From Ruditapes philippinarum (Eukaryota), in assembly GCF_026571515.1 (NCBI RefSeq), contig NW_026852935.1, positions 62,001-126,000 of the forward strand: a stretch of DNA of 64,000 nucleotides, given 5' to 3'. The position numbers and the translations under genes are program-made. Under the pieces are notes generated by a model. That model did not search any database. It was not told the DNA's origin and saw only the letters and a program-made list of their open reading frames with translations. How positions within the stretch are numbered: the first letter of the stretch is position 1; each line of letters opens with the position of its first letter. Below, in pieces: positions 3,430 to 61,400 of this stretch.

Positions 3430-4293
3430 TTTTTATGCCCCCACAATGTGGGAGCATATAGCGTTGCACTTGTCCGTCCGTCCGTCCGTCCGTCCGTCAG
3501 TCCGTCAGTCAGTCCGTCCGTACGTCCCGAAATCTTGTGAACGCAACTCCTCTTAAACCGGATGGCAGATTTTGCTTAAACTTACAGGGATGAACAACCT
3601 TAATGTGTAGATGGTAGTAAAGGAAGGAATTTTTGCTGCGACCAAATTTAACAGAATTATGGCCCTTTGTTGATTTTTTCACTAGATACTATGTAGAAAT
3701 TTTGTGAACGCAACTCCTCTTAAACCGGATGGCAGATTTTGCTTAAACTTACAGGGATGAACAACCTTTATGTGTAGATGGCAGTAAAGGAAGGAATTTT
3801 CGCTGCGACCAAATTTTACAGAATTATGGCCCTTTGTTGATTTTTTCACTATATACTATGTAGAAATTTTGTGAACGCAACTCCTCTTAAACTGGATGGC
3901 AGATTTTGCTTAAACTTACAGGGATGAACAACCATAAGGTGTAGATGGTAGTAAAGGAAGGAATTTTCGCTGCGACCAAATTTTACAGAATTATGGCCCT
4001 TTGTTGATTTTTTCACTTTATACTATGTAGAAATTTTGTGAACACAACTCCTCTTAAACCGGATGGCAGATTTTGCTTAAACTTACAGGGATTAACAACC
4101 TTAATGTGTAGATCATAGTATAAAAGGAAGGATATTTTGCTGCGACCAAATTTAACAGAATTATGGCCGTTTGTTGATTTTTAGTTTTCAACTTGTGGCA
4201 CATGTAGTCCAAAAAATATTTGACCTAGAGTCATAAGATTGACAGAACAGTGGCGTGTGGGGGCATCAGTGTCCTATGGACACATTTCTAGTT
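3430..4293 (+). mobile_element. Non-autonomous Helentron-associated element (HINE/DINE-1-like) with internal satellite array
   Basis: Inserted in a T run. 5' subTIR/stem-loop atgcccccacaatgtgggagcat, then (GTCC/GTCA)n microsatellite 3472-3526, then a tandem array, 3' subTIR tgggggcat, hairpin gtgtcc-tat-ggacac and terminal ctagtt. Confidence 0.9.
3533..4185 (+). repeat. 167-bp tandem repeat, ~3.9 copies, inside the HINE
   Basis: gtgaac(g/a)caactcctcttaaac recurs at 3537, 3704, 3871 and 4038 (period 167). Confidence 0.95.
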
Positions 4294-5335: not shown

Positions 5336-7129
5336 TAATTTGCCTACATATCAAGGGCTTTAATAGCGCTAATTTTCATTAAGTGTCACGTACAACGTTT
5401 AAATAATCATAAACAAACATTTCAATTTATTTGACTGTTTATTTATATGTTTTCCAATCGGTGTATTAAAACTTTCTTTACATTGCATAATCTATGTGTT
5501 ATACAACAGTTGTACAATATTTTCTATGAAGGTGTTTTGATAGCTGTCTGTAATGTTTTTACAATTTCCTTTTTAGTTTGATTTGTTTTAAGCAGCATAT
5601 TTATTATCAAATGACAAACACGCGCCACTTTTAGTTAACAATAATACTATTTGTAGCCTGTTTGAACGACATGATCGAATTATCCAGAATTGACCAATCA
5701 TAATTAATCGATGAAATCTGCTTAGTTGTTGCAAAGGGTATGCAGGAAGATGGCCTGCTATTTAACACAAATATAACTGCTATAATAGAGAAGATCAACC
5801 TACAACATCACCATTTATAACATAATACAAAAGTATGTAAACATCCCAAATAAATCAAGCATTATATTTTGTAAAACTGTAATGCTGAATGAACCATAAC
5901 AGAATGCCAAGCTTGCAAATTTCATTTAATTTATTTTCTGATGATCGAAACATCTTAAAGATAATTGATATAATAAAAGTGTCCGACTAGACAGTAATAT
6001 ATATTTATTGTAGGTTTGTTGCACTCAGGACATCACTCATTTTGTCTACAACAAATATCTTCAGACCATATGTACTTATACATTTGCCCAGAAGTCACAC
6101 AAAGTAAAGCCATAAATTAAAATTACAAGGAACGAGATATAAAAATATATTCTTGCTGCACAAATTGTTACTTCCTGGGTGAATATCCTCCTGGGTGAAT
6201 ATCCACAAATATGCTCTCGGACAGTGCAGCAGAGAGGTGTTTTCTGCAAGGTTTACGCTTTCATTATTATGATTATCAACAAGAACTATGATCAATTTTG
6301 TGTGAGAGATACATGTATTTATTGATGTCTTTATCAAGCCATTTAGTACAAATTTGTAAAAGTCTCTTGATGGCAAATTTCGAGTGACAGCTTCCCCCAA
6401 AATCTGGAAAAGGTATGTTTCCTCAACACTCAACACTTAAAAGTACCGAAATCAATGATTCCCATCTGAGTACCGTTATTAATAATTTAAACTACCGATA
6501 AAACAGTGCATTTTTATACACTATGGATACCAAAGGGGCACTAACTTCATTTTTGCTCATATTAATTTTGAAACGATGCAGCACATAACCTCTTATTTCT
6601 AGTTTTTTTTGGTACTTTTGACAAAAATTCCCGGCGTTTATGACTACATCTGATATAGTTGGTAACGCATGATTATTTGATTAATTATAAGTTAAAAAAG
6701 TAACATCGTGGTCAATGAAAACCTGATATTATCTTGAATTTCTTGCAAATCAAATTATGAATTTCTACGTAAGCACGTTAATGAACAAATCGTATTTCTG
6801 AAGTCAATATCGTCACTGCTATAGGTCAGTTGTAACATATTTCATATTTATATTGAATGAGATAATAACATGATTGATTTAACACATGTCTAAAATAACA
6901 TATGATACTTTTCCTATTAATTTTGTTATTCAATTCCAGACGTTATTGTCTTAAAGAAAAGATAATATAGAACCAAACTGTATAGATTATAGTTCAAAAG
7001 TGAATTATACATTGTAATGTTGAAAAATAGAAATATATGATTTAATTATTGATGTAAATTTTATGTTTGATTGATTACACACTATAATGCTGCGATTTTA
7101 CCTTCTTATCACTATACACGCCATTTTTA

Positions 7130-7530
7130 AAAAAAATAAAGACATCTTGCTGTTTTTTAATTCAATAATGTTGCTGAAACACGCCATGTTTATATATTAA
7201 ATACACATTGCTTTTTAAAGTCAATTATGTTGCTTAACCACACTATTTTTATATAAATACAAAAAGCATTTTTTGAATTCAATAATGTTGCTTGTACATG
7301 CTGTTTTTTATAAATAATTACACATTGCTGTTCTTTTCAAATTCAATAATGTTGCTTAAACACGATATTTTTATATAAAACAAACTGCCTTTTGAAGTCA
7401 ATAATGTTGCTTGTACACGCTATTTTCATATAATTACACATTGCTTTTCTTTTCAAATTTAATAATGTTGCTTAAACAAGCTATTTTTATATAAATACAC
7501 ATTGCTTTTTAATTCAATAATATTGCTTTA
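7130..7530. repeat. ~58-60-bp minisatellite, ~7 copies
   Basis: a(t/g)tcaataatgttgctt...cacgctattttttatataaatacacattgcttttt recurs at about 7159, 7219, 7276, 7339, 7395, 7456 and 7511. Confidence 0.9.
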
Positions 7531-10500
7531 GTCACCTTGTGCATGAGGAGTGCATGCTTTCCGTGACCACGTAAAAAGTCCTATCCGATAAATAACTTGC
7601 TTATAGGAGGTATGTGATCTCAAAACATTGCTGAATCAGCGTATACAAACTAACTAATCGAGTCCTTTTTATACTTCTCATAATATATTAAGAAACTTAT
7701 AGTGCTTGAGAGGTATATACTAATTATATGTTATCGTCTACAAAGTGAAGTTTTACCAACTGTCTGTAATATATTGAAACAATTGTTTTATTATAAGCAG
7801 CATATTTGGTTCGTTATCTTACAAACACATGTCACTTTTAATTAACCATAATAACGTCCTCTAATTAGAACACAATGATCACGAAAACCTGCAGACACAC
7901 GCCACTTTTAATTAACAATAACAACGTCCTCTAGTTATAACAAAATGATAAAGACTTTCTGCAAACATTTTCGAATGATCTATAAAAAAGATAAAAAAAA
8001 ACAAACAAACAAAAAACAACAAAAAAAAAAAACAATCGTAATTGAGCGATGAAATCTGTTTAGTTGTTGCAAAGGGCATAGGAAAGGGAAGGTGGAATGC
8101 GGTTTCACACAATTATAACCTTTATTGAAAGTTGATATCAACTCCTAACATTATCAATTGTAACTTAAATCATAATTATGTCTTATATAGGTACATAAAC
8201 ATCCTAAATATATCAAAAGCCATAACGTGTAAAACTGTTAAGCAGTACAGCCTGTTAACCGAATGTCCTGCTTGTAATTTTGCTTCATTTATATTCTGAT
8301 CTCGAAAGTACTTAACGAAAATTGGTATAAAAGTGTCCGACCAGACAGTAATATATATTTATTGTAGATTTGTTTGACCCAGGGTATCACTTATAAAGTC
8401 TTTGACAAATATCTTCAGAACGTATGCACTTATATGTTTGCCCTGAAGTAAACAAGAAAGCTATAAACAAAACTTTCAACCATCGAGACAATAAGTAGTT
8501 TCTTGTTTCACAAATCGTAAAATCCTGGACTATTGAATTGCCACAAATATGCACTCTGACACTGCCGTCTTATTTTATTGTTCTGAAACAAAAATGAATT
8601 TGTCTGAGAAATCTACAGAATTCTACTGACTTAGAAGTGGCTTGTTAAATGAGCAGTAACCGACCAGTCTTGGTAAATTGAATATGACTGGATTGACAAA
8701 TCTCAAATTTATAACCGATACAAATTTTAACAAACACCGTTTTATTATTTCTTATACCTTATTGTGTTGAAAATTGTGTATAACTTAAACCGATGCATGC
8801 AGGCGTCGAACTTTTAAGTATTTCTCAATCAAACCGAGTCTGCAATTTTCCATTATTATTGAACTTTGTTTTATTTCTCTCAAAATGTCTCCCCTTCTTT
8901 CCAGATAATTAAAAAACCTTAATGGACCATTTAAATGTTGTTTTTTTAATCAGAAATAAGCACTTCATATAGTTTTGTATTCCGGAAAGATTGAGCTGGC
9001 AAACATTCAAAGAAGAAATACTTGTTTCCAAGACGATCAAGCAATGAGAAATATATAAATAAAAAGATATATAGCAAAGCTTCTAATTCAATAGGATTCA
9101 CATACATTAAAATAAGTGTGTTTGAATAAATACATAATATTGAAATATATAAGAATATAAGAATGCCCAAATCAACAAGTTTATTAGCAATTGTTACAAA
9201 AATGTAATCTAAATGAACACAAATAGTCCAACAACAACACGTGATTTTAATATTTCCCTTAAGTTTTCAATTCCATATGGAAATAGGAAGATGTAATATG
9301 CGTATTTGACAATTTGTTTGGAATTTAATTCAAGTCTCAACGTTTGCTCATTTCTTGTTATTTACGATATGCTTGAACGACATCTGCTATGCGATCAGGT
9401 TATATTAATTCTTTCTCTTTTTTTTGCGCAGGATGTTTTGAGTGAATTTAACGTATTTTCTTTTCATTCTTGGCTTTTTGAATGCAACAATACTTTTATG
9501 TCAATAATACTACAAATGCCTTTCAGTTGAGAGAATCAAGGATATCAGCATTCAACAATGAAACCGCGCTTATTTTATAGATATGCGATGCATATTTGAT
9601 GGAAGTTTTGATTATTTCTATTATCAACAAACTGACTGCAAGATTGTCAACACACATCTTGATCAAATTGCCTTGTTATACAGCGACATATATTATTTTG
9701 TCATATGTGCAAATTATTCAGACATTTTGATCTTAAAGAAGTGTGATAAAGAATGATTTCAATAAACTAAAAACAATTCTAAAGTATTTCACAAAATATC
9801 TTATTTGCAGCCCTGATTCTTTACATTTATTTTTCGTAAATGGAAAATAAATGTAAACCCACCCTTCAATTCAATTCCAAAATGAAACTAATTAGTGTAA
9901 CTGGCATTCTTTCATTCCTCAGTACTTTATCAACATTTCAATACTTTCCTTGATTTTAAATCATTCTGATGTGTGACTGTTTCAAGTATTAACTGGGGAA
10001 TATATTTTTATGATACAATTAATATATCATCAAAGCAAAAGTATTCAAAATATTCAACCTGTCCATACTTGTAAAAGGCAATACCAAAGCTCACTGATAA
10101 AGTAAAAAAAATGCTTATTTACTTATTGTTTGTTAAAAATTTCTCGGATATTAAATACTTTTTGAATGTAATTAAATAGTCAATTGTAACCACGATCACA
10201 TCTCAGGCACTGTAGGGAATCAGGGAAAATGAGTCGGATGTTTTAGTTGTTCCAACACTACCAGGTCAATGATTTTGGTTGCGCACCAAAATTATGGGGG
10301 CTATTGAATTTCACAACTTTCTCAGACATAACAAAAACTTTAAATGAATTTTTTTATGGCTACATTTTAAAGATAATATATCTTTTCATTTATGACATGT
10401 ATGAGAAAGAGTTGGATTCCTATTGGATTTACTAAACAGATGATCTACATCCGAGTGAAAACAGCTGTCACCATTTCTTAAAGACCCGATCAATCGCGCC

Positions 10501-10738
10501 ATCTGGGACAAGCTGGAATGTAATACTCAATTGAACAGTGTGTTCCGTTTATAGGAATAGTTTTGAAGGTTTACACATAAATTCAATTAAAAATAAACTA
10601 TGGAATGGATAAGGTTTGTTTTTAATAATACTTTTAGTTTTTTACCTTCTTTTTTGTATACATTTTTTTCTTTGGTGATCACAATTGAGTATGGAGAAAT
10701 ACTCGGCTTTTGATAAATATCAGTAAGTGGACAGCAAG

Positions 10739-10745
10739 ATGGATG
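10739..10745 (+). CDS. Possible first coding mini-exon (ATG GAT G) or end of a 5' UTR exon of the coiled-coil/TM gene
   Basis: aagATGGATG|gtaagg has a good start context and a strong donor. It splices in frame only to the weaker AG at 11228-11229, giving MDALLQPIIMSLFLVIF... Splicing to the AG at 11220-11221 makes it a UTR/uORF exon. Confidence 0.25.
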
Positions 10746-11249
10746 GTAAGGCATTTTAGTTATATTTTGCATTTTTCGTTGCATATTCACTGAATATTCT
10801 TATATTTATTTGGGATATTTTCTTTCGGTAAATGTTTCCTGTTACCTCCCCTAAGTGTAATTATATATTTCTTGACATTTGGAGTCATTGTTTCCAATAT
10901 ATTAGTGTTAAAGATTAAATACCTCTTCACATTGTGCTAAGGAATGGGGGAGATGTTGTGCACTGATAATTATCTTTCGTGTACAGTGTATATTTAAATG
11001 TTCATTTCTGTGTTTTATTGCCCTTGACGGACCCCGGTTCCCTTTTCCATTGCTATTGAAATGGACCGGACCCGTTGTGGTTTGGTTTGAATAATTACTA
11101 TACTAAGTATTAAAATATACCAATTGCTTAATTGAAGTGCTTACAGATGTACACTTGCATTTGAATAATCACAATAACAAAATGTTTTAATCAAATGAAA
11201 ATATTGCTCATTTAATTTTAGCTGGATAGCGTTGCTGCAACCTATCATA

Positions 11250-11505
11250 ATGTCCTTGTTCCTAGTGATATTTCGGCAGCATTGGCTCGGTCAACAGTTT
11301 GCAAATAAGGACTCTTATGCCGTTCCAAGTGCCGATATAGATGAGATAAAAGATAGACTAAAGACTGTTGAAGAAACTTCTTTATCAAGTAAAGATATAA
11401 ACGGCATAGAAGAATCTATATCGGACTTGTATAAATCAATTGGAATGTTGCAAGATCAGGCTGGGAAATACTCACAAGTTAATGAACCGTGCAGCAGCTG
11501 TGACG
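11250..11505 (+). CDS. Coding exon of an unrecognised membrane protein: hydrophobic N-terminus, coiled coil, CxxC
   Basis: Acceptor tttaattttag ends at 11221; ATG at 11250. Heptad pattern IDEIKDRLKTV...INGIEESISDLYKSIGML. Ends PCSSCD-G|gtttgt (phase-1 donor at 11506). Confidence 0.75.
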
Positions 11506-11904
11506 GTTTGTATTGACAATGGTTTACACATAAACCAGATATTCATGTAAATGCGACTCATATAATATTAGAATCATATCTCTGGGATCAATAATAATGT
11601 TGAAATGTATACAGAAAACAGCTTCCCATGTCAAAATAGATAATATTCATTTTTTATTTACAAATTGTCATAGAACTTTGTTGTATATAAAACAAATTTC
11701 ATTTTGTTGTTTATAATTTAATGATGTTTTTGTATGAACTAAACTGACATGCATAATTAAGTGGAATAATATAAAATCTTATCTGCATACTTCATTTACC
11801 TTATCAGTCAGGTCTTGGATTTTTCTGAAAATATTACTTTTACTCATATTTAACTATAAAACGTATAAAGTTTTATGCTTTCTTCGTCCGTCTAGTTTGT
11901 TTAG

Positions 11905-12099
11905 GGGCTTTAAATGGTACAGACGCAATAATGTATCATAAAGAATCACAAAAAAGAGCCCCTGTTACTTCATACGTTAATATGAAGAAGAGTATACCTG
12001 ATACCCGTCTAATTGTGCTACTGTCAACAGAAGTAATGGATAAACCGCTGTTATGACATATATTTATGACCGAATCAGTATCAGCTATGAAGATTGATA
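11905..12099 (+). other. Candidate symmetric (phase 1-1) 195-nt cassette exon with one in-frame TGA at 12054-12056
   Basis: tttgtttag|GG GCT TTA AAT GGT ACA...ATT GAT A|gtaagt. Length is a multiple of 3 and in frame with both flanking exons. Translation: GALNGTDAIMYHKESQKRAPVTSYVNMKKSIPDTRLIVLLSTEVMDKPLL*HIFMTESVSAMKID. Confidence 0.4.
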
Positions 12100-12498
12100 G
12101 TAAGTTAGAAACTGGCAATTTTAGCGATCAACAGAAATGCAGTTGCTTATAGCATTAATAGTGGTAATACTTGATCTCGCACGCTGTGTGCTAATATGTC
12201 ATCTCTCACCGCTAATTCAGAAATCATGTGAGAAAAATAATAAGTGACTTACGGAGAAATGAGCAATATCTAAGAAAGCCGATTAAGTGGTATCATTGTC
12301 GAGATATGACCAAAATTTGTGAAAATCAGTGAACAACCAGAAAAAACACATTCAAACAAAAATCAACAATAATCTTCTAACATATTCTTTGTTATGTCAT
12401 GACATGCAATTTGAAGTATTGAATATATACATGTATATTTCTAAGATAGTTATATTTCTATATAGAAGAATGCCTCACATTTTGATACTATCTTTCAG

Positions 12499-12662
12499 GA
12501 CACTCTGCTAATATAGGTATTGCTGTGCTTGCACTGATTCAGCTGGTGACAGTCATCTGTTTGGCAGTTCTGTGGAGAAAAATGATAAAAGTTCAAGTTC
12601 CAAACGAAAATATTCAAGCACCAACAAAAACAAACAATAACTTACAAACAACCGCAAAATAA
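12499..12662 (+). CDS. Terminal coding exon: transmembrane helix and cytoplasmic tail
   Basis: atctttcag|GA CAC... in phase 1 gives GHSANIGIAVLALIQLVTVICLAVLWRKMIKVQVPNENIQAPTKTNNNLQTTAK*. A ~21-aa hydrophobic stretch is followed by a WRK basic stop-transfer. The phase matches the donor at 11505/11506. Confidence 0.75.
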
Positions 12663-13043
12663 AAATGACAGATGTTCTGCATTGATGGATGTATGCGGCA
12701 ACAGTGTTAGTTTAAGATTTTGTGGCTTTTACTGTCTTTGAATTAGTGTGACACATTGACGCGTTCGAGATTTCTATGTTATAATCTAATAGTTTCTGCT
12801 ATGCACTTATGCCATTAAGCAATTTTATACAATACAAACCATTTTATTTTTTGTACTTTCTTTATGATTTATACGAAGTTTAGTTAAGTCATTGTAATAC
12901 ATTACGCTTTCTTTTCTCATACATATTTCACTTTTGGTATGAAGTATTTTTAATTGACATTATCACATCTTCATTTTTGTTTAATTCCATGTATGGATTG
13001 ATATGATTGATAGATCCCTTCTCTGACCTTTTATTTGAATAAC

Positions 13044-13049
13044 AATAAA
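13044..13049 (+). promoter_or_regulatory. Candidate polyadenylation signal for the coiled-coil/TM gene
   Basis: AATAAA about 380 nt after the stop codon, at the end of a U-rich 3' UTR-like tract. Confidence 0.4.
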
Positions 13050-15037
13050 TTTAACCATAGACATTGACATGTGCTCTTATGTTAACAAATATGTTGTGGT
13101 ATCCACTAATCTGACAATTATAATTAAACAGGTCAGGGATCTAAGTAAATAGTAATTTTAAAATGCTAGAAATGAACAATAACAAAACAATAAGGGTTTC
13201 GTAATTATATTTGCTGAAACAAATGTTATAACATCATTCGTGCTTACTAAATATTATTTGATTATTCTTAAAATCACAATACTATTTTTGAAGTACACTA
13301 TGTTAAAAACCATTAGTATTTGTTTTTGAATTATTTAAACCCTAATTTGCAATTAATAAGCATTTTATATTTTGTTCTCGGAGCAGGATAAAGTAAAATT
13401 CATTTAAACGTTAAGCCTTTGACTTTTCATGTACAAAGTGTACCCTTCAATGCATGCTTGTAAAAATATAAGTAAACACGACACAGTTTATTTAAGCATA
13501 AGGTATGACAGTATGATGGTGACAACAGGTGCCATACACGAATTCATTTTGTAGTATTTAGTTTTGAATCCTCATATTCTATGATAAAACAGAAAAAAGA
13601 CGTTGCACTAATCATCACCGGGTTCATGTTATAAACGGTTTAAATTCATCGATCGTAAAAGAATTTTGCTGCCAGTACGGACCAAAAAATCTAGCTTGAG
13701 AGTAACAGTTAACGGCAGTAACAAGGCTCAATCGAGTTTCCGCAAAACAGTTTCAAACAGTAAGTTATCCATCCGCGGTAAGATTCATTTCCTCGCCAAG
13801 AATTTTCGGTTAAAAATAAATAAAATTAATATTTCTATTTAGCATTTATTATTGATGCAGTGTATGAATTTAAAACTTCATTTATAAAAGCGAAAAAACG
13901 CCATCCTAACATAAATAGCACGCGCCAATAGAATAGTAGCATTCAAAACACAAATGTTGTCTTACAAGGGGATGGAGCATTGTTTGCCAGGTTTTTCTAA
14001 CACTGGTGTAAACAGCTGAAATTCCTGTCTGATATGTAATAAATATAAACCGTATACAATAGCTTAAAAATAAAACACACATACATGACATAGAAATGAA
14101 CAATATTGATTGACAAACAAACACAAATGAATTTTATATAATATCTGTTTAACACGCAATATTAATTAATGAAAAGGGAACTAATTCATGGTGCTCCTGC
14201 TGAAACGAAATGCTGTAAGCCCAGTTTAATTATTAGTCAACACCAAGGTGGTTGTTTCATTTAGACATGAAGCAATTTTGAATGAATCCCAAATGATATT
14301 TAGTCATAGGAGAAACGCTATTAATATAGAAATACCGTCTTGACAGTCTGTAGAAACGTGTTACGAAACAGATTTGTTATTCCAAACACCTATAGTTGGC
14401 TGTCACACGCTTTCTGTTACTTGCGGACATTACGCAGCTTTTCATAGCATGGCACGAAAGTGTCACATTGAAAGTTCTATAATAACCGCAGTATGTATAC
14501 ATCTGCGGATGTTTCTAAATTCAAAATTCCACCATTTTCATGCTTAAATGTTGAATTCTGCTTAAGCCAGTGTCAGGGGCGTGGACGGTAGTTTGCACTT
14601 GACAGTACCGTCTATGAACAGGCTCAATCAAACCAAGCCTTCAACAGTTTCAATTTTGCCTTTTGCACTTTCTTTAAGGTTTCCTTTTTTTCTCTATTTC
14701 TGAGTAATAACATGCCTAGGCAATACCATGTTTCCTTAAAATATGAGATGGCAATGAATTAATCATTGTTTCTTTACAGTTTTAAGTCACAGAAACAAGT
14801 AGTTTGTAGTTTGTTAAGTAGTTTGTTGACTTCAAGCTTTAATGCTGGATGAAAACCTCGTAGTAAAACATATTACAACAGGCCGATATATTTTTACAGA
14901 TGCCAAATCATTGACCAACATTGGAAATTTAATATTGTCTGAGTCGAGATCTGCTTACGAATTGTTGACCATTGCCTTTGATGTAATGTTTATGTTATAA
15001 AATTTTATTTTTAAACTAATATTTACTTCGAAAAATG

Positions 15038-15290
15038 TGGGCGTCCGTGGCCGATGCTTAAGGTCGTTGATATCAAACCACTTGCACTGTTGGATCGAAT
15101 CCTGCATGGGACTTTGGATTCGTTTATGTGTGGAAGCTATCCATCTAGCTTATGGACCGTCGATGGTTCGTTCTACTCAGACACCCGCTCGTGCCTAAAT
15201 ACTGCACACAAGGACACCGAGGTATTCCTCCACTAGAACAGCTGGGAAGTCATCATTTTACTTATATTGTGTTGGTACGAACTGTGAGTA
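15038..15290 (+). mobile_element. tRNA-derived SINE with Nin/Deu-type central domain (degenerate)
   Basis: A-box-like gtggccgatgcttaagg and B-box-like ggatcgaatcc. Core gaagctatccatctagcttatggaccgtcgatggtt...cccgctcgtgcc...ttcctccac. Tail gtcatcattttacttatattgtgttggtacga. Confidence 0.85.
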
Positions 15291-15885
15291 GAGCCGGTCA
15301 TGTATTATTTAACACTGGACTATATAATGGCTGAAATATCTGATAACTATAGTGAAATCCATGGTTTCCGTCAGATATATTGCTTTTTAAATTAACAAAG
15401 ATGACGGTGTCAGTTCATAGCAATGTTCACTTATTTCAGCTTTGAAGTAAGTATTGCACTGAAATATAGATGATTTAGTAAGATTAGCGTAAAGACATAT
15501 TAATGATTAATTAATTATACTGAAATCAGACTTGTCAATCGTAAAACCTTTTGTGTAAGTGCTTAATTCCTAGTAAAGAAGCAATTAAATAACAAAATAA
15601 CTAACTAATTACACAAATTTACAGGGTACACTGTAGACTTTTTTATTCTTCTTTCAGAAATAGCTGAAACTATTTTTATCATATCAAGCATTTATAGCGA
15701 TACCAGAAAATTGCTGTCTGTCTCAGACATTTGATTCCGTTATAAGTAGTCTTATCAGACTAATGTTGCTGTTATCTTACGTAATACTTTATCAATTTAT
15801 ATTTTTAGGTTAGAGAAACATCTTAACGGTATGTAATTGTCCCACTTGAAGCATGTAATAGGATAAAAAGGACGATGATACTGCG

Positions 15886-16232
15886 CAGCTGACACTATCA
15901 AATGTGTCAAGTAGCATAAATAATTCAGTTGAGGCCATAAAATGCTCAAGTAGCAAGATTTTCACGTCTGACATCGTATAATATGTCAAGTAGCAAGAAT
16001 CACTCAGTTGACACCATAAAATGCGTCATGTAGCATGAAGTACTCATTGTAAACCATAAAATGTGTCAAGTAGCCTGATTTACTCGGTTGACACCATAAA
16101 TGTGTCAAGTAGTAAGATTTACGCAGTTGAGACCATAAAATGTGTCAAGTAGCATGATTTATTCTTTTGACACCATAAAATATATCAAGTAGAACGACTA
16201 ACTCTTTTTGACACTATAAAATGTGTCATGTA
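15886..16232. repeat. 40-bp minisatellite, 9 copies, each with palindrome TTGACAC-N8-GTGTCAA
   Basis: Consensus ttgacaccataaaatgtgtcaagtagcatgatttactcag at about 15889, 15929, 15968, 16008, 16048, 16088, 16127, 16168 and 16208. Confidence 0.9.
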
Positions 16233-19200
16233 ATATTTAAATAGAAAATGATACATGTACAGCACAAACTCTCTCAAAGTTGAACAATTCCGTTGAAAGT
16301 AATATGACTTCTTAAGTAGTGATTCTAGATATAACAAAACGCTTTGAATATTTTGAAAAGAGTGAACTTTAATGAGACATTGAAATGCTACATGTATGTC
16401 AAATTAATGTAAAATGAAAGAATAATAGGAAATTAAGAATACATCGTTGACTTCAAAGAAAATAAATCAAATTTATGCAAATTTAAGACGCTGAATTTAT
16501 AATACCTGACATGTTTGAACTCATATTATATAAGTTTTCCTTTCACATTAGAATACAAAGTAGTAATATATTATAATGTTTCGTCGGATAAAAGGAGTGA
16601 AGTCAACAGCAAATGTTAGTATAAAATATGCTTTATTTTACAAAAGCAAAAAGTTATGGACCCAAACTGAACAAGTAAAGTCAATATGAATTTCATCGTC
16701 AATAATCATTATGGTAACATTTGTAAGACACTCACATTCTTGAACTTTCCTAAATTTAGACATTTTACTAACAGCCGACTGCCATAATGTACTAAGATGG
16801 TTTACAGGATTGATTTAAGTACAAAACAGCATATATTCTTCAATACGTTAAATTTCTTTACAAACAGAAACAAATATTTCTTGTTATATCGATAAAAAAT
16901 ATTTCCTGACAAAGTGTTTTCTGTAATGGTGGTTTCAAAATAAAAATAACCGTATTTCAAACGTTTGACATGTAAACGAAAGATAAAAACATAGTAACTT
17001 ATTGTCATAAGACTTTTCTTTGATAAGATTATGAAAAATAAGATATAAATCGCATGGAAATTGGATGAAAATAAGTACACGGTATTAAAAAATTACATGG
17101 ATACCAATGGCTGTCAAAGACAGAAGGTATATTTGATAACCTTGGCTGACGAAAGAAATTTTTTTTTAACCCAGTCAGGCGGAGGGAAACAAAAATTCAT
17201 TGCTTGTTACAATCACATTTGTATACATTTTCATTAAAGTTTCTAAGAGTGAAAATCGATTGGAAATTGAATATACTGAACTTATTATCATTTATGTATA
17301 CCTAGGGATTATCTCCATTTAGACAAAAGATAATTGTAATAATTTCAACATTTATGAAGAGTTCTGAGCAAATCACCCTGTAAAAAGAAAAGATAATGTA
17401 CTTATATATACAAACTGTTCAGTTTTTCCTGAAACAACAAAATGTATACGGGCGTTTTAATTAATACATGAGGTTTAAAATATAAAAAGTAAAACGCAAA
17501 GCATCAATATTTAGAATGTCATAAATACATCTCAACCTTAATATCAAAGAAACGTGTGAAAATACACTCAAAAGCACATATTGCACCGGGACAACTGCCG
17601 ACAAAACTTTAGGAGCTCATAAAATTAATAAGTGTATCTAATTTTATCTGTTACGAACATCAAGGCATTTAATTAGCTTTCATCAATCTTAACACCATAT
17701 CTGATTGGATGCCATGCGGGTGGTGTCTACGCGTAATTAATGATTTGAGACGCAGTCAAAACATCATACTTGATGATCCTGTAACACAATTTTTTATGGT
17801 TTTATATCATAAAGCTGATGCTCAAATCAAGATTTATCAATTTTGTAAGTTCCAAAAAGCGTTATTTATAAAGATATTACCGAATTTAACATTTTATGTA
17901 AATAAAGAGAGGTAATAAAAAAAATTTCTATAAAGTCTAAGTCAAATTTTTCAATAAAAATTAAATGAATAAATTTTAATGATTACATATAATATGTACA
18001 AATATTTGCAGTGCTTTAGTTGAATAGTACTAAGTCACGGATTTCTCTCAATAAACCCTTCAGTGCTACTTAACTTGACAGTTCTGTACACAAAGAAATA
18101 AAAGCAAAAAAACATTCAATGTTTTTAAGCCGAGGTTAAATAAAATTTTAGATTTCGTAAACTGTCTCCTATAAAATTCAATTTTTCAAGAACAAAAAAG
18201 ATGATGATAAAGTGGACCATTTCCCTCAGCTGTTTATTTTCAAATAAGATAAACAAAATCATAAAATTAATATGATATTTCGGGGGTAAAATAATTCTAT
18301 ATATAAAAAAAAATAACTTTAAAGTTCGAAATTTATGTTTAATTTAATTCAATCAATGATAAAATGTAAAATTTCAATGAACAATAGGAGAGGGGAACTT
18401 GCAAGCAACACATCTATGAACGTATTAAAAATCTTCAACACATTGATACAAGTCACAATCATGAACACACCCACACAACTCGTATTTGGAAACAATAATG
18501 TCAAATATATGAGTATATTTGTCATATAAATAAAACATAACCCCAATTTTTGCCAGACTGAAATCTATTGAAAACCAAATGGAAAAAATACATTAACTAA
18601 CAGCAATCTTGAAATGAATCTACAGAGATAAACATCCCTTCCCCTCACCATTACTCTACAAAAATATGATATTTCAAAGGAAAGGCACTTGACCGTTATC
18701 CTTTCACAATCGAACTTATGCAATGGAAATTAAAGCATGACAAGCCTACAAAAGTAAGTTTTATACGATTTAAATGGTATTTTAAAAGAAAATAAGAAAA
18801 TGCACTAAAGGACACTAAAACGCGTAATGTTCTAGACAATTATCTTCCCTACCACAGCATTAGCAATAACAATAAATCATTTAAATACAAAGCATACATT
18901 TTATTGCTTACAAGATTTATTGCTTTTTATTGTCAACTTAATGAAAATTCTTCTAGCGTGTTCGGGATATTGTCTGTTCTTTGTCACAAGACATTGATGG
19001 ATGATAACATATAGAATTTTATATCCACATTGACATTGTTGAAAGAATGAGTTCAGCTTAAGTAGTTTAACATACTCAACTATGATTTACTTACGGTCTT
19101 TAAAGTGCTAATGTGTTAGTAAATATGGTGTTCCGATCTATAGACAGATCCCTGTACACTTCACTTGTATATATACAAGATATGATAAAATAAAAAATAA

Positions 19201-23169: not shown

Positions 23170-24658
23170 AAACAAGAGCCGGTTGAACCGGGTGATGCTC
23201 CCCGAATAGGTTTTGGACACAGGAAGGTATACCTCGTGTAATGTGAGAGTTATGTCACAGACAAAGTTCAAAGTGTAATTAAAAACAAATGTTGTGCACG
23301 ACACATTGTCTCAATATGGTGATCATTTCTGTGAAATAGTTGTAAAATCTGACTTCAAATAACAAAGTTATGAGCCAGACATGATTTTGCTGCAAGGTCA
23401 TGCTGTAATCTTAACCTTCAAGGTAGCGACCCAAATGTTTCACGCGACACGTCGATTCAATATGGTGATTATCTCTGAGAAATAGTTGTTAAATCCGACT
23501 TCAAGTAATGAAGTTATGGGCCCGAGACGATTTTGCTGCAAGGTCATGCTGAGACATTGACCTTCAAGGTAGCGACCCAAATGCTGCGCGCGTCACGTCA
23601 TCTCAATATGGTGATAATTTCTGTGAAATAGTTTTAAAATCTGACTACAAATAACGAAGTTATGGGCCGGACATGATTTTTCTGCAAGGTCATGCTGTGC
23701 CCTTGACATTCAAAGTAACGACCGAAATGTTGCGCGCAACACGTCGTCTCAATATGGTAGTCATTTCTGTGAAATAGTTTTAAAATCCGACTTCAAATAA
23801 TGAAGTTATGGACCGGACACTATTTTGCTTCAAGGACATGCTGTGACCTTGACCTTCAAAGTAGCGACCCAAATGTTGCGCGCGATACGTCGTCTAAATA
23901 TGGTGATCATTTCTGTGAAATAGTTTTAAAATCCGACTTCAAATAACAAAGTTATGGGCACGAATTCGGGACGTACGTACGGACGAACTGACGGACGAAG
24001 GACTGACTGACGGACGGACGAACAAACCGACGACTATATTCTCCAATGACCAATCACCATACCAAGTTTGAAGTTCCTAGGCCTAAGCGTTCTTTAGTTA
24101 TTGATCGGAAGCCGTTTTTACCTACAAGGTCAATATGACCTTGACCTTTGACCCCTTGACGTTAAAATCAACAGGGGTCATCTGCTGGTCATGTCCAATC
24201 ACCATACCAAGTTTGAAGTTCCTAGGCCTAAGCGTTCTTTAGTTATTGATCGGAAACCATTTTTCCCTACAAGGTCAATGTGACCTTGACCTTTGACCAC
24301 TTGACCCCAAAATCAATAGGGGTCATCTGCTGGTCATGACCAATCACCATACCAAGTTTGAATGTCCTAGGCCTAAGCGTTCTTTAGTTATTGATCGGAA
24401 ACCGTTTTTACCTACAAGGTCAATGTGACCTTGACCCCTTGACCCCAAAATCAATAGGGGTCATCTGCTGGTCATGACCAATTACCATACCAAGTTTGAA
24501 GTTCCTAGGCCTAAGCGTTCTTTAGTTATTGATCGGAAACCGAATTCGGGACGTACGTACGGACGGACTGACGGACGGACGGACAACCCGGACGGACTGA
24601 CGGACGGACGGACAACCCAGCGACTATATGCCCCCCCGAAATTTTTCGGGGAGCATAA
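23170..24658 (-). mobile_element. Composite HINE/Helentron non-autonomous element with two head modules and two different satellite arrays
   Basis: Left end aacaagagccggttgaaccgggtgatgctcccc (hairpin plus subTIR). 146-bp array at 23287, 23433, 23579, 23725, 23871. GGAC microsatellite head 23962-24044. 145-bp array at 24046, 24191, 24336, 24474. Second head 24541-24658 ends atgcccccccgaaatttttcggggagcataa. Confidence 0.9.
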
Positions 24659-57615: not shown

Positions 57616-58400
57616 TTTGTTTGTTTGTTTGTTTGGATTTTTACGGCACGTCAACACATAACTGGCCATATCGTGCCGAATGCTATAATAGGCTTAAAAT
57701 ATTATGTAAAACATTGTAAATGACAATAAAAATGAGTCAATTAGATCCTAGAATACAAGTTTATCTCTTTTAAATAATCAATTATGTTTTTTGATGGAAT
57801 TTTATTAAAAAGTTCTTTGAGTGAATTTACAGAATAAAATCTATTACGGGCCTGTGAAAAATCATGACATTCAAGAAGAAAATGCTTGACGGTAAAATTT
57901 TCATTACAACCTACACAGAAAGGGGCATTGTCATTTGTGAGGAGATAAGAGTGGGTAATTTTAGTGTGTCCAATTCGGCATCGAAGTAGAACTGTTTGAT
58001 CACGGCGGTTTGACAGAGATAGAGATGGTGACATATCAAGAGATGGGTTTATATCGTGAAGTTTATTAAAAAAGGCATTGTCCCAATTTGCTTTCCATTC
58101 AGATGATACGAGTTTATTTATAGCCGGTCTAAAATCACAAGCAGGTAACAATAAGTCAGTTTTTTGAAAATTTAATGATTGTTTAGCTAAAGCATCTACT
58201 TTTTCATTTCCTCGTATTCCTACATGGCTTGGAATCCAATATAATTTAACATATTTTGTTTTAAGTATATCATGAAATCGCAAAAGAAGTTTCTTTACCA
58301 TGATATTGTCAGATTTTTTATTTTTAATGGATATTAAAACAGAAAGCGAGTCAGAAAATATCACAAATTTATCGTGGGTATGCTGTGCTATGTATGACAA
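57616..58400 (-). mobile_element. 5'-truncated non-LTR retrotransposon, I superfamily (Nimb/I-like)
   Basis: Contains the ORF2 C-terminus, a 3' UTR with cggcacg...cgtgccg stem-loop and an (AAAC)n tail. 11-bp TSD TTTTATATTGG at 57605-57615 and 58401-58411. Confidence 0.93.
57741..58400 (-). pseudogene. LINE ORF2 fragment: RNase H C-terminal part and CCHC zinc knuckle
   Basis: FVIFSDSLSVL and WIPSHVGIRGNEKVDALAK (RNase H), RCRIGH, CVGC...TVKHFLLEC. The frame is stop-free but has no start, being truncated at the TSD. Confidence 0.93.
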
Positions 58401-61400
58401 TTTTATATTGGAAACAAATTATGACACTAGTAGAACAATGAACGTTGAAAGTTCTTCCATTGAAATCGTGTAAATTTTAGGCAAATATTAATCTTTCTTC
58501 ATAATTTATATAAGTAGAAACACAATACACAATTCACTTATACCTAGCCTAATGTTTGAACACACAAACATTATTATGCTTCAAACATCGTTTTACAAAA
58601 CTATGATTATAGTAAAATGAAGACTATTAAAGGTCGCAACATATGTTATAATTGAATACAAAATGTTTCAGACTTATTTTAATGACCTTTCCATAGACCC
58701 AAATTTTTAATTTCAAAGTTAAATTTTCTTAATGCTTTAGAAAAAAGTTGCAGTTTAAGTATTTTTTTTTCTTAACTTCTATCTTTATTTGTAATTGATC
58801 CCATATTTACATCAAAACACTTAAATATTTTTATGCAAACATAGTAATTGACAAAAAAGAGTAATAACAACGTCATATAAATATCAAGTATATAATGTAT
58901 GTATAAAGTCAATAAGGAAATGCAACGGGTTTTACTTTTTCTATGATCAATCTGCATTACATAATGCATATCATTTTATCCGATTTACTAGCATACTACA
59001 GAACGCAATTATTCAGTAGAATAGTGAATTATAATTCACGAATTCCGTTTAAATGCACGATCTACTGGTTTATAAACAATTTATAAGACTTCATACTTAA
59101 CCGAATTTACAATTCAAGTGCAGTGAACATGCAGAAATCATATTAGGTTATTGACATTTAGAAATTATTTTTACAGGAATGGATCACAAATAATTATCTT
59201 AAATTGTAATGGAAAATAATTCAAGAGAGAAAATCATGCACAATTCATTGTACACGCCTTTTCTGTCGGTTTAAACATCTATGATATGCCATCAACGTCT
59301 AGGGAAATTCTGATTCGTGTCATTTGTAGAACAATAATTAATACTCCGCTTACTTTAGAAATAAGCTTTTTACTGCATCATTAGAAAAAGTAATTATAAA
59401 GAAATCGACTTGACAAGAAGCTGCAATGCCAAATGTATAACCTATTTAGGTTTCGTCAAGTAAAAGAAATCTCACGAATGTGTTGTGCGAGTGGGCATTA
59501 TATTTGCCCATGATTTTAAAGCTACACGTCTGCAGAAAGGTTATCAATGATTTAAAAGAAAAAAATTAAGGCAATGACTTTTTTCCCATTATTATTTTGT
59601 TAATCCCTTTACAAATAGACTTACTCTGGATTTAAGAATAGTTTGGGTTTTTCCAGCTTATCCGTAGATACAAATGAATTTTTGCAGTTAAAGCTCCTGA
59701 ATATAAGCACTGCAGGTTGACGATTCTATTATGACGGGTAGTGCACCGTGAAGCTGTAACGGTAAAAAGTTTGTTTGTACCTACAGATTAGCTGGGGAAA
59801 CCCACATTTGCCGAGTTCCGACTAACATCTATTGAACAATACAGATTTATTTTGGAGATTTCGGCACTTTCGGGTACAAAAGTAGTAAGAGTCTTTTACA
59901 AACACAAATCATGTTATTAAGTTTAATGTAAAAGTTTGGAGAACCTTATATAATCATAATACACTTTATATAATTGTTCTAGTTATCTCGTGATTTTCCT
60001 AAAATTAGGTTGTTTCGAATGGGTTTACCTTAAACAAAGCGTGATGCAGTGGTATATATGATATGTTTCGAAATATTTTGTGAAGCCATACATTCTATAT
60101 AAACCCATTAACATATCTGGTTTCATTTGATTCACGAATATGATTTTCTAGGGGCAAAAAGTATTTTGTGAGTCTTTTAGTAGTGTATCGTTTAATATAC
60201 GAAGTGATAAACATCATTTTACACTAGCAATGAGTAATCGCACATGTTGCATGGTAAAAAGAAATGTTTTCCTAGGTCTGTGTTTAACATAGCGAACAAG
60301 TATATTAGTCATCAACAAACTTTGTTTCAGAAAGGCAAATTTACAAATATCCTAAAACCTGGTGATATTATACATGTATATAACCGAATATGCCTTGAAA
60401 ATACTAGTTATGATTCAATGTCGACAGTTAGGTTCCATGTCGACAGTTAAGTTCCATATCTCTGATATTAACACAATAATTATAGCAGAAATGCTTATCT
60501 ATAACCAAAATAACACATTTTATTACATTTAGAAAACATCAATAAAGAAACAATCTGTTATCAAATACATTAAAAACATAAAGATACAATTTTGTTTATT
60601 TATGTTGTAGTAAATAAGTAATAAATCCTCGCTCTCGAATCATGATACTATTACGTAAAATTACCATAATAATACGTCATTTCAAAACCCTGAATTTTGG
60701 AAAAAAACATATTTGTCACAAAAAGAAATGGTTTCCATATCGGTGCTCATACATTTCCCATGCCCTCAAATGTAGTGTTATGAAGCCTTAATGCATAATC
60801 GATAAGACATTGTCTCAATTATTTGACTACCTTTTGAAGTATCTAATTTCTGTCTGCAACTGGGAATGCAACTTTAACAATTACAGTCTACATCTTACTC
60901 AGCTGGTGATTTGCGCTAAATATACCATAAAACTGTCTCTGAAAAGGCGTTATTAGTCCAATATATTGCACACGTACCTATAAGTTTGAATTTTTCTTTG
61001 CACCAATTCTTTCAGGGGAAACAAGATAGATCGCCTTTTCGAAACGGTAAATTTCAAAACATCTGCGAAAGATCAGAAAGATAATGTATCACGTTTTAAT
61101 CATTTGTTTGTTATGCATTGTTTTATGTCAGCAGTCGTTTTTTAGGAGAGTTGTTTTTATTGTTGTTAAGTCTTCTTTTTGAATATTATAAGATACTTGT
61201 TTTTCATTTCTTTTGTTATTTGAATTTTTTTTAAATTATATATTAACGTGAAAATATTTTCGTAGGTTATTTTGACATAATAAATCATATGTACGGAACG
61301 TCACTTACACAAAACAATAAATTTCGTCACAGCATACCTGTTTTTGTTATCAGACAATGATTTTGTCCCAATACTATTCTTAATTGATATGTAATAATGA

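Follow-up and report, generated by a model that had tools for sequence, protein, structure and literature searches.

The window that we analyzed, a stretch of 64,000 nt from the clam Ruditapes philippinarum, contains an expressed gene of three exons that encodes a protein of 153 residues. Both the structure of this gene and its splicing were established from RNA evidence. The product is 100% identical to XP_060570102.1, the "uncharacterized protein LOC132728487" of R. philippinarum in RefSeq. Thus, the gene was not "hidden", as the original prediction had it; it is real, already annotated, and uncharacterized, with no function assigned to it. By sequence comparison, the protein appears to belong to an undescribed family that, among named matches, is limited to the Venerida (two clam families). 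Our preferred explanation, which we hold tentatively, is that it is an oligomeric, non-enzymatic membrane scaffold or adaptor that makes two membrane passes and whose predicted two-helix coil faces outward or into the lumen.

To define the gene, we examined 4 of 24 listed runs over positions 7600 to 15850, namely the contig sets X1 and X3 and the raw RNA runs X21 and X23. The contig sets were picked for containing the stretch; none of the 20 runs that contain it is recorded as RNA, but both of those examined include spliced contigs. A GT..AG junction at 11505/12499 was present in contigs of X1 (depth 64) and X3 (depth 80) and in five X23 reads with five different starts, and there was none in X21, so that three of the four runs bear out the predicted splice. 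Joining 11250-11505 to 12499-12662, with GT/AG ends, reproduces the 139 amino acids of the original prediction letter for letter. The start that had been assigned to this product was wrong, however. Three X23 reads, which have 63 letters on the short side, and one X3 contig of depth 40 contain a second GT..AG junction, 10613/11222; no such joint was listed for X1 or X21. This junction leads back to an ATG at 10600 in exon 1, with in-frame TAA codons at 10588 and 10594 just 5' of it, and the product is therefore 14 residues longer at the N-terminus. The N-terminus contributed by exon 1 matches the RefSeq and Mercenaria models.

All features of the gene lie on the forward strand. Exon 1 (10550..10613) consists of 5' UTR plus 14 coding nt from the ATG and ends at a phase 2 donor at 10614; the transcription start is approximate and lies at least about 63 nt ahead of the donor. 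Exon 2 (11222..11505; 284 nt) encodes hydrophobic segment 1 with Gln11-Pro12, a linker, helix A, a hinge, helix B, and Cys95/Cys98. The coding part of exon 3 (12499..12662) encodes the transmembrane helix at residues 105-125 (including Gln114 and Cys120), a basic flank, and a polar tail of 28 residues and ends with TAA. The 3' UTR (12663..13068) carries AATAAA at 13044 and a cluster of read ends at 13068, where seven molecules end in X23, and one X1 contig continues to 13206. We regard the 3' end at 13068 as tentative, given that it overlaps a repeat-like stretch and that depth climbs sharply in the bin 12844-13119. No second copy of the gene was found by tblastn within the 64,000-nt window. 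At the hinge, an internal GT donor (A|GTAAAG; 11388..11394) is a candidate alternative splice site. Its use would keep the frame (345 nt) and yield a short form without helix B and the Cys. The annotated Mercenaria isoform X2 is spliced at the hinge in this way, lacking helix B and the Cys, and the same donor stands in frame in Ruditapes; a joint from 11388 was absent among the 15 joints listed, out of 29 in all, for this species.

The runs differed in expression and in sequence. Per letters read, exon 2 was about 50 times as deep in X23 as in X21, a gap that tissue, stage, or absence of the gene could each explain. In both X1 and X3, two similarly deep contigs covered 11220-11429 (210 nt), one with 1 or 4 differences and the other with 17 or 18 (about 8%). 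The two haplotype contigs merge into one over codons 65-143. Two of five listed differences in the coding region change a residue (S58A and I78V), and three are silent. The divergent haplotype is more likely an allele than a paralogue, because the RefSeq cluster has one member. From 12629 on, contigs of the 3' UTR drop to half depth, which suggests that the second haplotype diverges again there. Reads of X23 carry six to seven other differences.

Elsewhere in the window, neither an exon scan nor tblastx gave a clear neighboring gene; across the whole window, Rfam had 0 matches. Between about 19000 and 54100, a block of ~10-14 kb is present in three degenerate copies arranged in tandem, in pieces that are 67-90% identical. 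Within this region, a short sub-repeat recurs about ten times, and no conserved coding exon was found; as a guess, the sub-repeat could derive from the end of a decayed retroelement. On the reverse strand, an open stretch of 225 codons at 57741-58418 encodes an RNase H domain (Pfam E 9e-07) and probably marks where a non-LTR retroelement ends. High-copy transcribed repeats at 14430-14660, 15050-15160, 13006-13120, and 8820-8850 are very deep in all or most runs, the summed depth in X1 reaching 16,853. Self-BLAST also revealed tandem arrays with units of ~40-170 nt at 3529-4182, 7115-7528, 15884-16235, 23286-23963, and 24046-24542.

To find relatives, we combined word-index searches, which spanned 29-310 residues at most, with a HMMER pass of a three-sequence profile over 1.84 billion representatives, which also covered longer fused forms. 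The eight other sequences that we found comprise two Mercenaria isoforms, one Mactra protein, and five unnamed single-exon read-through fragments. Isoform X1 of Mercenaria LOC128550154 is 65% identical over both helices and the coil. Across the same elements, Mactra ACF0H5_016121 is 27% identical (38/141) and was matched with the profile at E = 2.4e-7. The three named species with the protein are all Venerida, and the unnamed fragments cannot be placed. The Mercenaria and Mactra relatives are likewise unnamed or hypothetical, no Pfam family is defined, and a full-text search of the papers themselves gave 0 papers for the LOC identifiers of the Ruditapes and Mercenaria genes, whereas such identifiers mostly appear in supplementary tables. 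Pfam returned weak generic coil matches, none at the cut-off, and a sequence search of PDB gave matches to the coil part alone. In the ESM Atlas, the Ruditapes protein had no feature match, the Mactra protein gave two unnamed leads under 0.9, and the structure matches were all under TM 0.5. None of Pfam, PDB, and the Atlas revealed a catalytic or binding domain. These results, with the fold searches described below, agree with the prediction of a lineage-restricted protein that has no globular head and falls in no recognized family.

The protein had been described as single-pass, but the true N-terminus carries a second, more conserved hydrophobic helix, which could be a cleaved signal peptide. 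Hydrophobic segments thus occur at residues 4-22 and 105-125, on either side of the coil, as in the two-anchor layout that the original prediction had raised in passing. Segment 1 has a Kyte-Doolittle value of 2.29, and the C-terminal helix one of 2.81. No part of the protein is better conserved than segment 1, in which 20/22 residues are identical to Mercenaria compared to 79/131 elsewhere (Fisher P = 0.007). Against Mactra, 8/10 of residues 5-14 are identical versus 13/82 in the loop. Gln11-Pro12 is kept in all seven sequences that cover it and Gln114, the Gln that had been noted in the C-terminal transmembrane helix, in all five that do so (the second Mercenaria isoform counted in both cases). 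The linker at 89-103 is least conserved (4/15). It holds the CxxC noted earlier (C95/C98 in the Ruditapes protein), which is peculiar to the species, being present in one of seven spanning sequences; as a redox or metal site, it was ruled out on that count. What persists is one Cys just ahead of helix 2 (7/7), located at column 98 in six of the seven sequences and two places earlier in Mactra. We also rejected an internal duplication relating helix 1 to helix 2, since the score was reached by 279, 337, and 4793 of 5000 shuffles. The tail is otherwise variable, but Ruditapes, Mercenaria, Mactra, and one unnamed fragment share a run of three Asn at residues 145-147.

The Ile-rich heptads of the predicted coiled coil are present, but they do not form one continuous run. 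A break in register near 59-63 separates helix A (residues 41-60) from helix B (64-89). The core stays hydrophobic down to 27% identity, and Leu51, Ile71, and Leu74 recur in all five aligned rows. The helix B core is conserved (20/23; P = 0.017), with Ile71 at a and Leu74 at d in 5/5 rows and positions 64 and 67 mixed. According to one source, Ile at a with Leu at d favors dimers and Ile at both favors trimers, and the pattern Arg-h-x-x-h-Glu specifies trimers, though it is found in some dimers too (PMC3653964). Helix A contains such a motif in register (R50-L-K-T-V-E55); it was sought after inspection of the sequence and was matched in 71 of 20000 shuffles. Its Arg occurs in one of eight homologous sequences, with Lys in six and Gln in one. 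The signals in the coil therefore appear mixed, with a trimer-type motif in helix A and a dimer-type Ile-a/Leu-d core in helix B. The clean trimer that had been proposed does not follow from them, although a trimer is possible. A three-copy complex prediction for residues 1-130, run without an alignment, reached 0.30 against a mark of 0.32.

Conservation on helix 1, on the core of helix B, and on the two Gln residues, together with the lack of a predicted catalytic or binding domain, suits a small oligomeric scaffold or adaptor. With respect to topology, the more positive flank of a membrane helix faces the cytosol (the positive-inside rule). The C-side flank of helix 2 is the more positive in 5/5 sequences, which would place the tail in the cytosol and the coil outside. 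With the coil outside, segment 1 would be a signal peptide or else an anchor that is retained. The sequence of an ordinary signal peptide usually changes rapidly, and segment 1 is the best-conserved part, so a retained helix that packs specifically fits better. At helix 1, the C-side flank is the more positive in 4/7 sequences, some with N-termini that are intron-derived or cut, and this conflicts with a two-pass hairpin. The three full-length genes have no glycosylation sequon and thus no such mark of a luminal loop. If the protein is a two-pass scaffold, both termini would face the cytosol. Gln within a membrane helix drives association, and copies of the protein may associate via the coil, the juxtamembrane Cys, and the membrane Gln residues. 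Helix 1 (WIALxQP) would provide a sequence-specific surface that packs on helix 2 or on a partner membrane protein, and alternative splicing at the hinge would shorten the stalk. Such a small scaffold would do its work through helices that pack specifically within the membrane, with the short coil and the Cys as a clamp.

Two other topologies have to be weighed against the two-pass scaffold. Cleavage of segment 1 after Ser16 as a signal peptide, which we consider rather unlikely, would leave a type I protein that passes the membrane once and has a mature N-terminus that is short and hydrophobic, a coiled stalk, the Cys, and one transmembrane helix, close to the topology first predicted and resembling a minimal fusion subunit. 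Cleavage is possible insofar as a (-3,-1) pattern after residue 16, with Pro at -5, occurs in 5/5 sequences tested, Mactra included, where there are further sites at 20 and 21. Segment 1 also begins at most three residues into the protein, and its hydrophobicity is below that of helix 2. But the site was called by a lenient rule rather than by SignalP, the cut would sit within a 19-residue hydrophobic run, and it would fall in the part of the protein that is best conserved. An unlikely arrangement, in our view, is the reverse topology, in which helix 1 would be an N-out signal anchor, the coil would be cytosolic, and helix 2 would be a tail-type anchor with a basic flank. The Cys would then be a palmitoylation site, and the rod would organize or link organelle membranes. 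Consistent with this, a basic residue follows both helices in the venerid proteins, the N-terminus is acidic or neutral, the loop lacks a sequon in 3/3 full-length genes, and the Cys residues beside the membrane vary in number and position. Yet helix 1 shows no charge bias in Mactra and the opposite one in two unnamed fragments, the bias of helix 2 holds in 5/5, and the length of the tail, 28 residues, lies near the upper end of the range for tail anchors.

Known systems with a similar build provide a further set of comparisons. ERGIC-53/LMAN1 has a luminal legume-type lectin domain, a coiled stalk, a membrane-proximal Cys, a transmembrane helix, and a short tail with a dilysine-diphenylalanine end. 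The clam protein resembles its stalk region from coil to short tail; it differs in having no lectin domain or dilysine-diphenylalanine end and in its extra N-terminal helix. For the legume-type lectin domain, Pfam gave no match, and a 153-residue product is too small to hold one. In class I viral fusion subunits, the core is a trimer and cleavage frees a hydrophobic peptide. Like them, the clam protein has a hydrophobic N-terminal segment, two heptad helices, a Cys, a transmembrane helix, and a tail; unlike them, it has no receptor-binding subunit or processing site upstream, and its Cys follows the second helix instead of lying between the two. Of the fusion-type features, the heptad signals are mixed and the possible cut after Ser16 comes from the lenient rule. 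It is highly improbable, in our judgment, that the protein belongs to a known family of small membrane proteins but has diverged very far, or that it is a fusion subunit captured from a virus, in either case beyond the reach of the searches. The hints in this direction are weak, coil-only matches in a profile search of PDB, including Rad50 (E = 0.0005), DotF, and CENP-K, along with non-significant matches to hemagglutinin HA2 chains at E = 0.09-0.36 among unrelated coils. However, the 60 profile matches listed were unrelated coils, none of which spanned both hydrophobic helices, and all seven HMMER matches at E up to 0.001 among the 1.84 billion representatives belong to the clam protein's own family. 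Foldseek gave no match at E = 0.001 in PDB or BFVD; the query was the second of two low-confidence AlphaFold models (pLDDT 44.6 and 49.4, of which helix boundaries alone are usable), and this result carries little weight. PHROGs gave weak coil matches (best E = 0.011). Viral contigs contained no relative, and the introns and conserved exon layout likewise count against this reading. On these grounds, homology, fold, and viral origin do not tie the protein to fusion cores, and the absent lectin domain sets it apart from LMAN1, so that it seems to be a member of neither group.

The comparison with tetherin/BST-2 and TMCC(aT) goes further. Those proteins have a membrane anchor, an extracellular coil with Cys, and a second anchor, an order that the clam protein would share if its predicted coil lies outside; none has a globular head, and splice variants change the coil, as in the Mercenaria isoform X2. 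For the clam protein, the heptads and the two hydrophobic segments are present, and its sidedness and the retention of segment 1 are predicted. Tetherin is described as having a short cytoplasmic tail at its N-terminus, ahead of the first transmembrane helix, with a tyrosine motif (PMC9599465, PMC10617486). The clam protein has three residues ahead of segment 1 and no Tyr; by inspection, helix 2 is followed not by a C-terminal GPI-type signal but by the 28-residue basic, polar tail, which is conserved in Mercenaria. The three full-length clam genes have no N-glycosylation sequon and one conserved Cys, compared to the glycosylation sites and several dimer-forming Cys of tetherin. The clam coil is also much shorter than that of tetherin, and hinged, and Pfam searches with E limits of 10 and 1 gave no tetherin family. 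Tetherin is further marked by inducible expression, by holding back budding particles, and by a gene placed between CILP2 and PLVAP; no gene next to the clam gene was identified in the window. Thus, for the tail, the GPI signal, and glycosylation with Cys, the sequence of the clam protein departs from what defines tetherin. Could it nonetheless be a tetherin-like tether that evolved independently in clams, a parallel, disulfide-linked coiled-coil dimer with an anchor pair in each of two membranes, such as those of a budding virion, a vesicle, or a gamete? We think this quite improbable. The order of anchor, coil, Cys, and anchor would suit a tether, and an artificial tetherin without sequence homology is reported to work, so that configuration suffices (PMC3715405), and tetherin stays active when its GPI signal is replaced by a transmembrane region (PMC9599465). 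The ~50-fold expression difference between the two raw-read runs and the haplotype that differs by about 8% across 210 nt of exon 2 in X1 and X3 also point this way. Against it, the rod would measure at most about 74 Å and has a break in register, and bat tetherins with a coil deletion of ~60 residues miss a part that is called critical for restriction (PMC9599465). In addition, tether anchors tolerate sequence change, but in the clam proteins strong conservation marks both helix 1 and helix B, and the long isoforms of bird TMCC(aT), hydrophobic at both ends, are described as intracellular and without significant antiviral activity (PMC10617486). When the scaffold and tether readings are taken together, a two-pass protein with its coil outside is about equally likely to be right or wrong. 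It is very unlikely, though conceivable, that a minimal membrane-bridging rod evolved independently in clams of the venerid order: an oligomeric coiled coil, anchored at both ends or with a freed hydrophobic N-terminus, that would tether two membranes or pull them together, with a length set by splicing at the hinge and with deeply diverged ectodomain haplotypes maintained in the population.

For the roles first suggested for this protein, in fusion, immunity, or gamete recognition, no direct support came from any analysis. What the gene represents is a conserved, undescribed family seen, among named matches, in one order of farmed clams; its exon structure now has RNA behind it, and the positions of its conserved residues are known. 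The architecture is of a known kind, and it is the family itself that is undescribed. If the protein does bridge membranes, the two-anchor coiled-coil design would have arisen outside the vertebrates, giving invertebrates a counterpart to tetherin or to a class I fusion subunit, and the protein would be a candidate for antiviral defense or gamete contact in clams.
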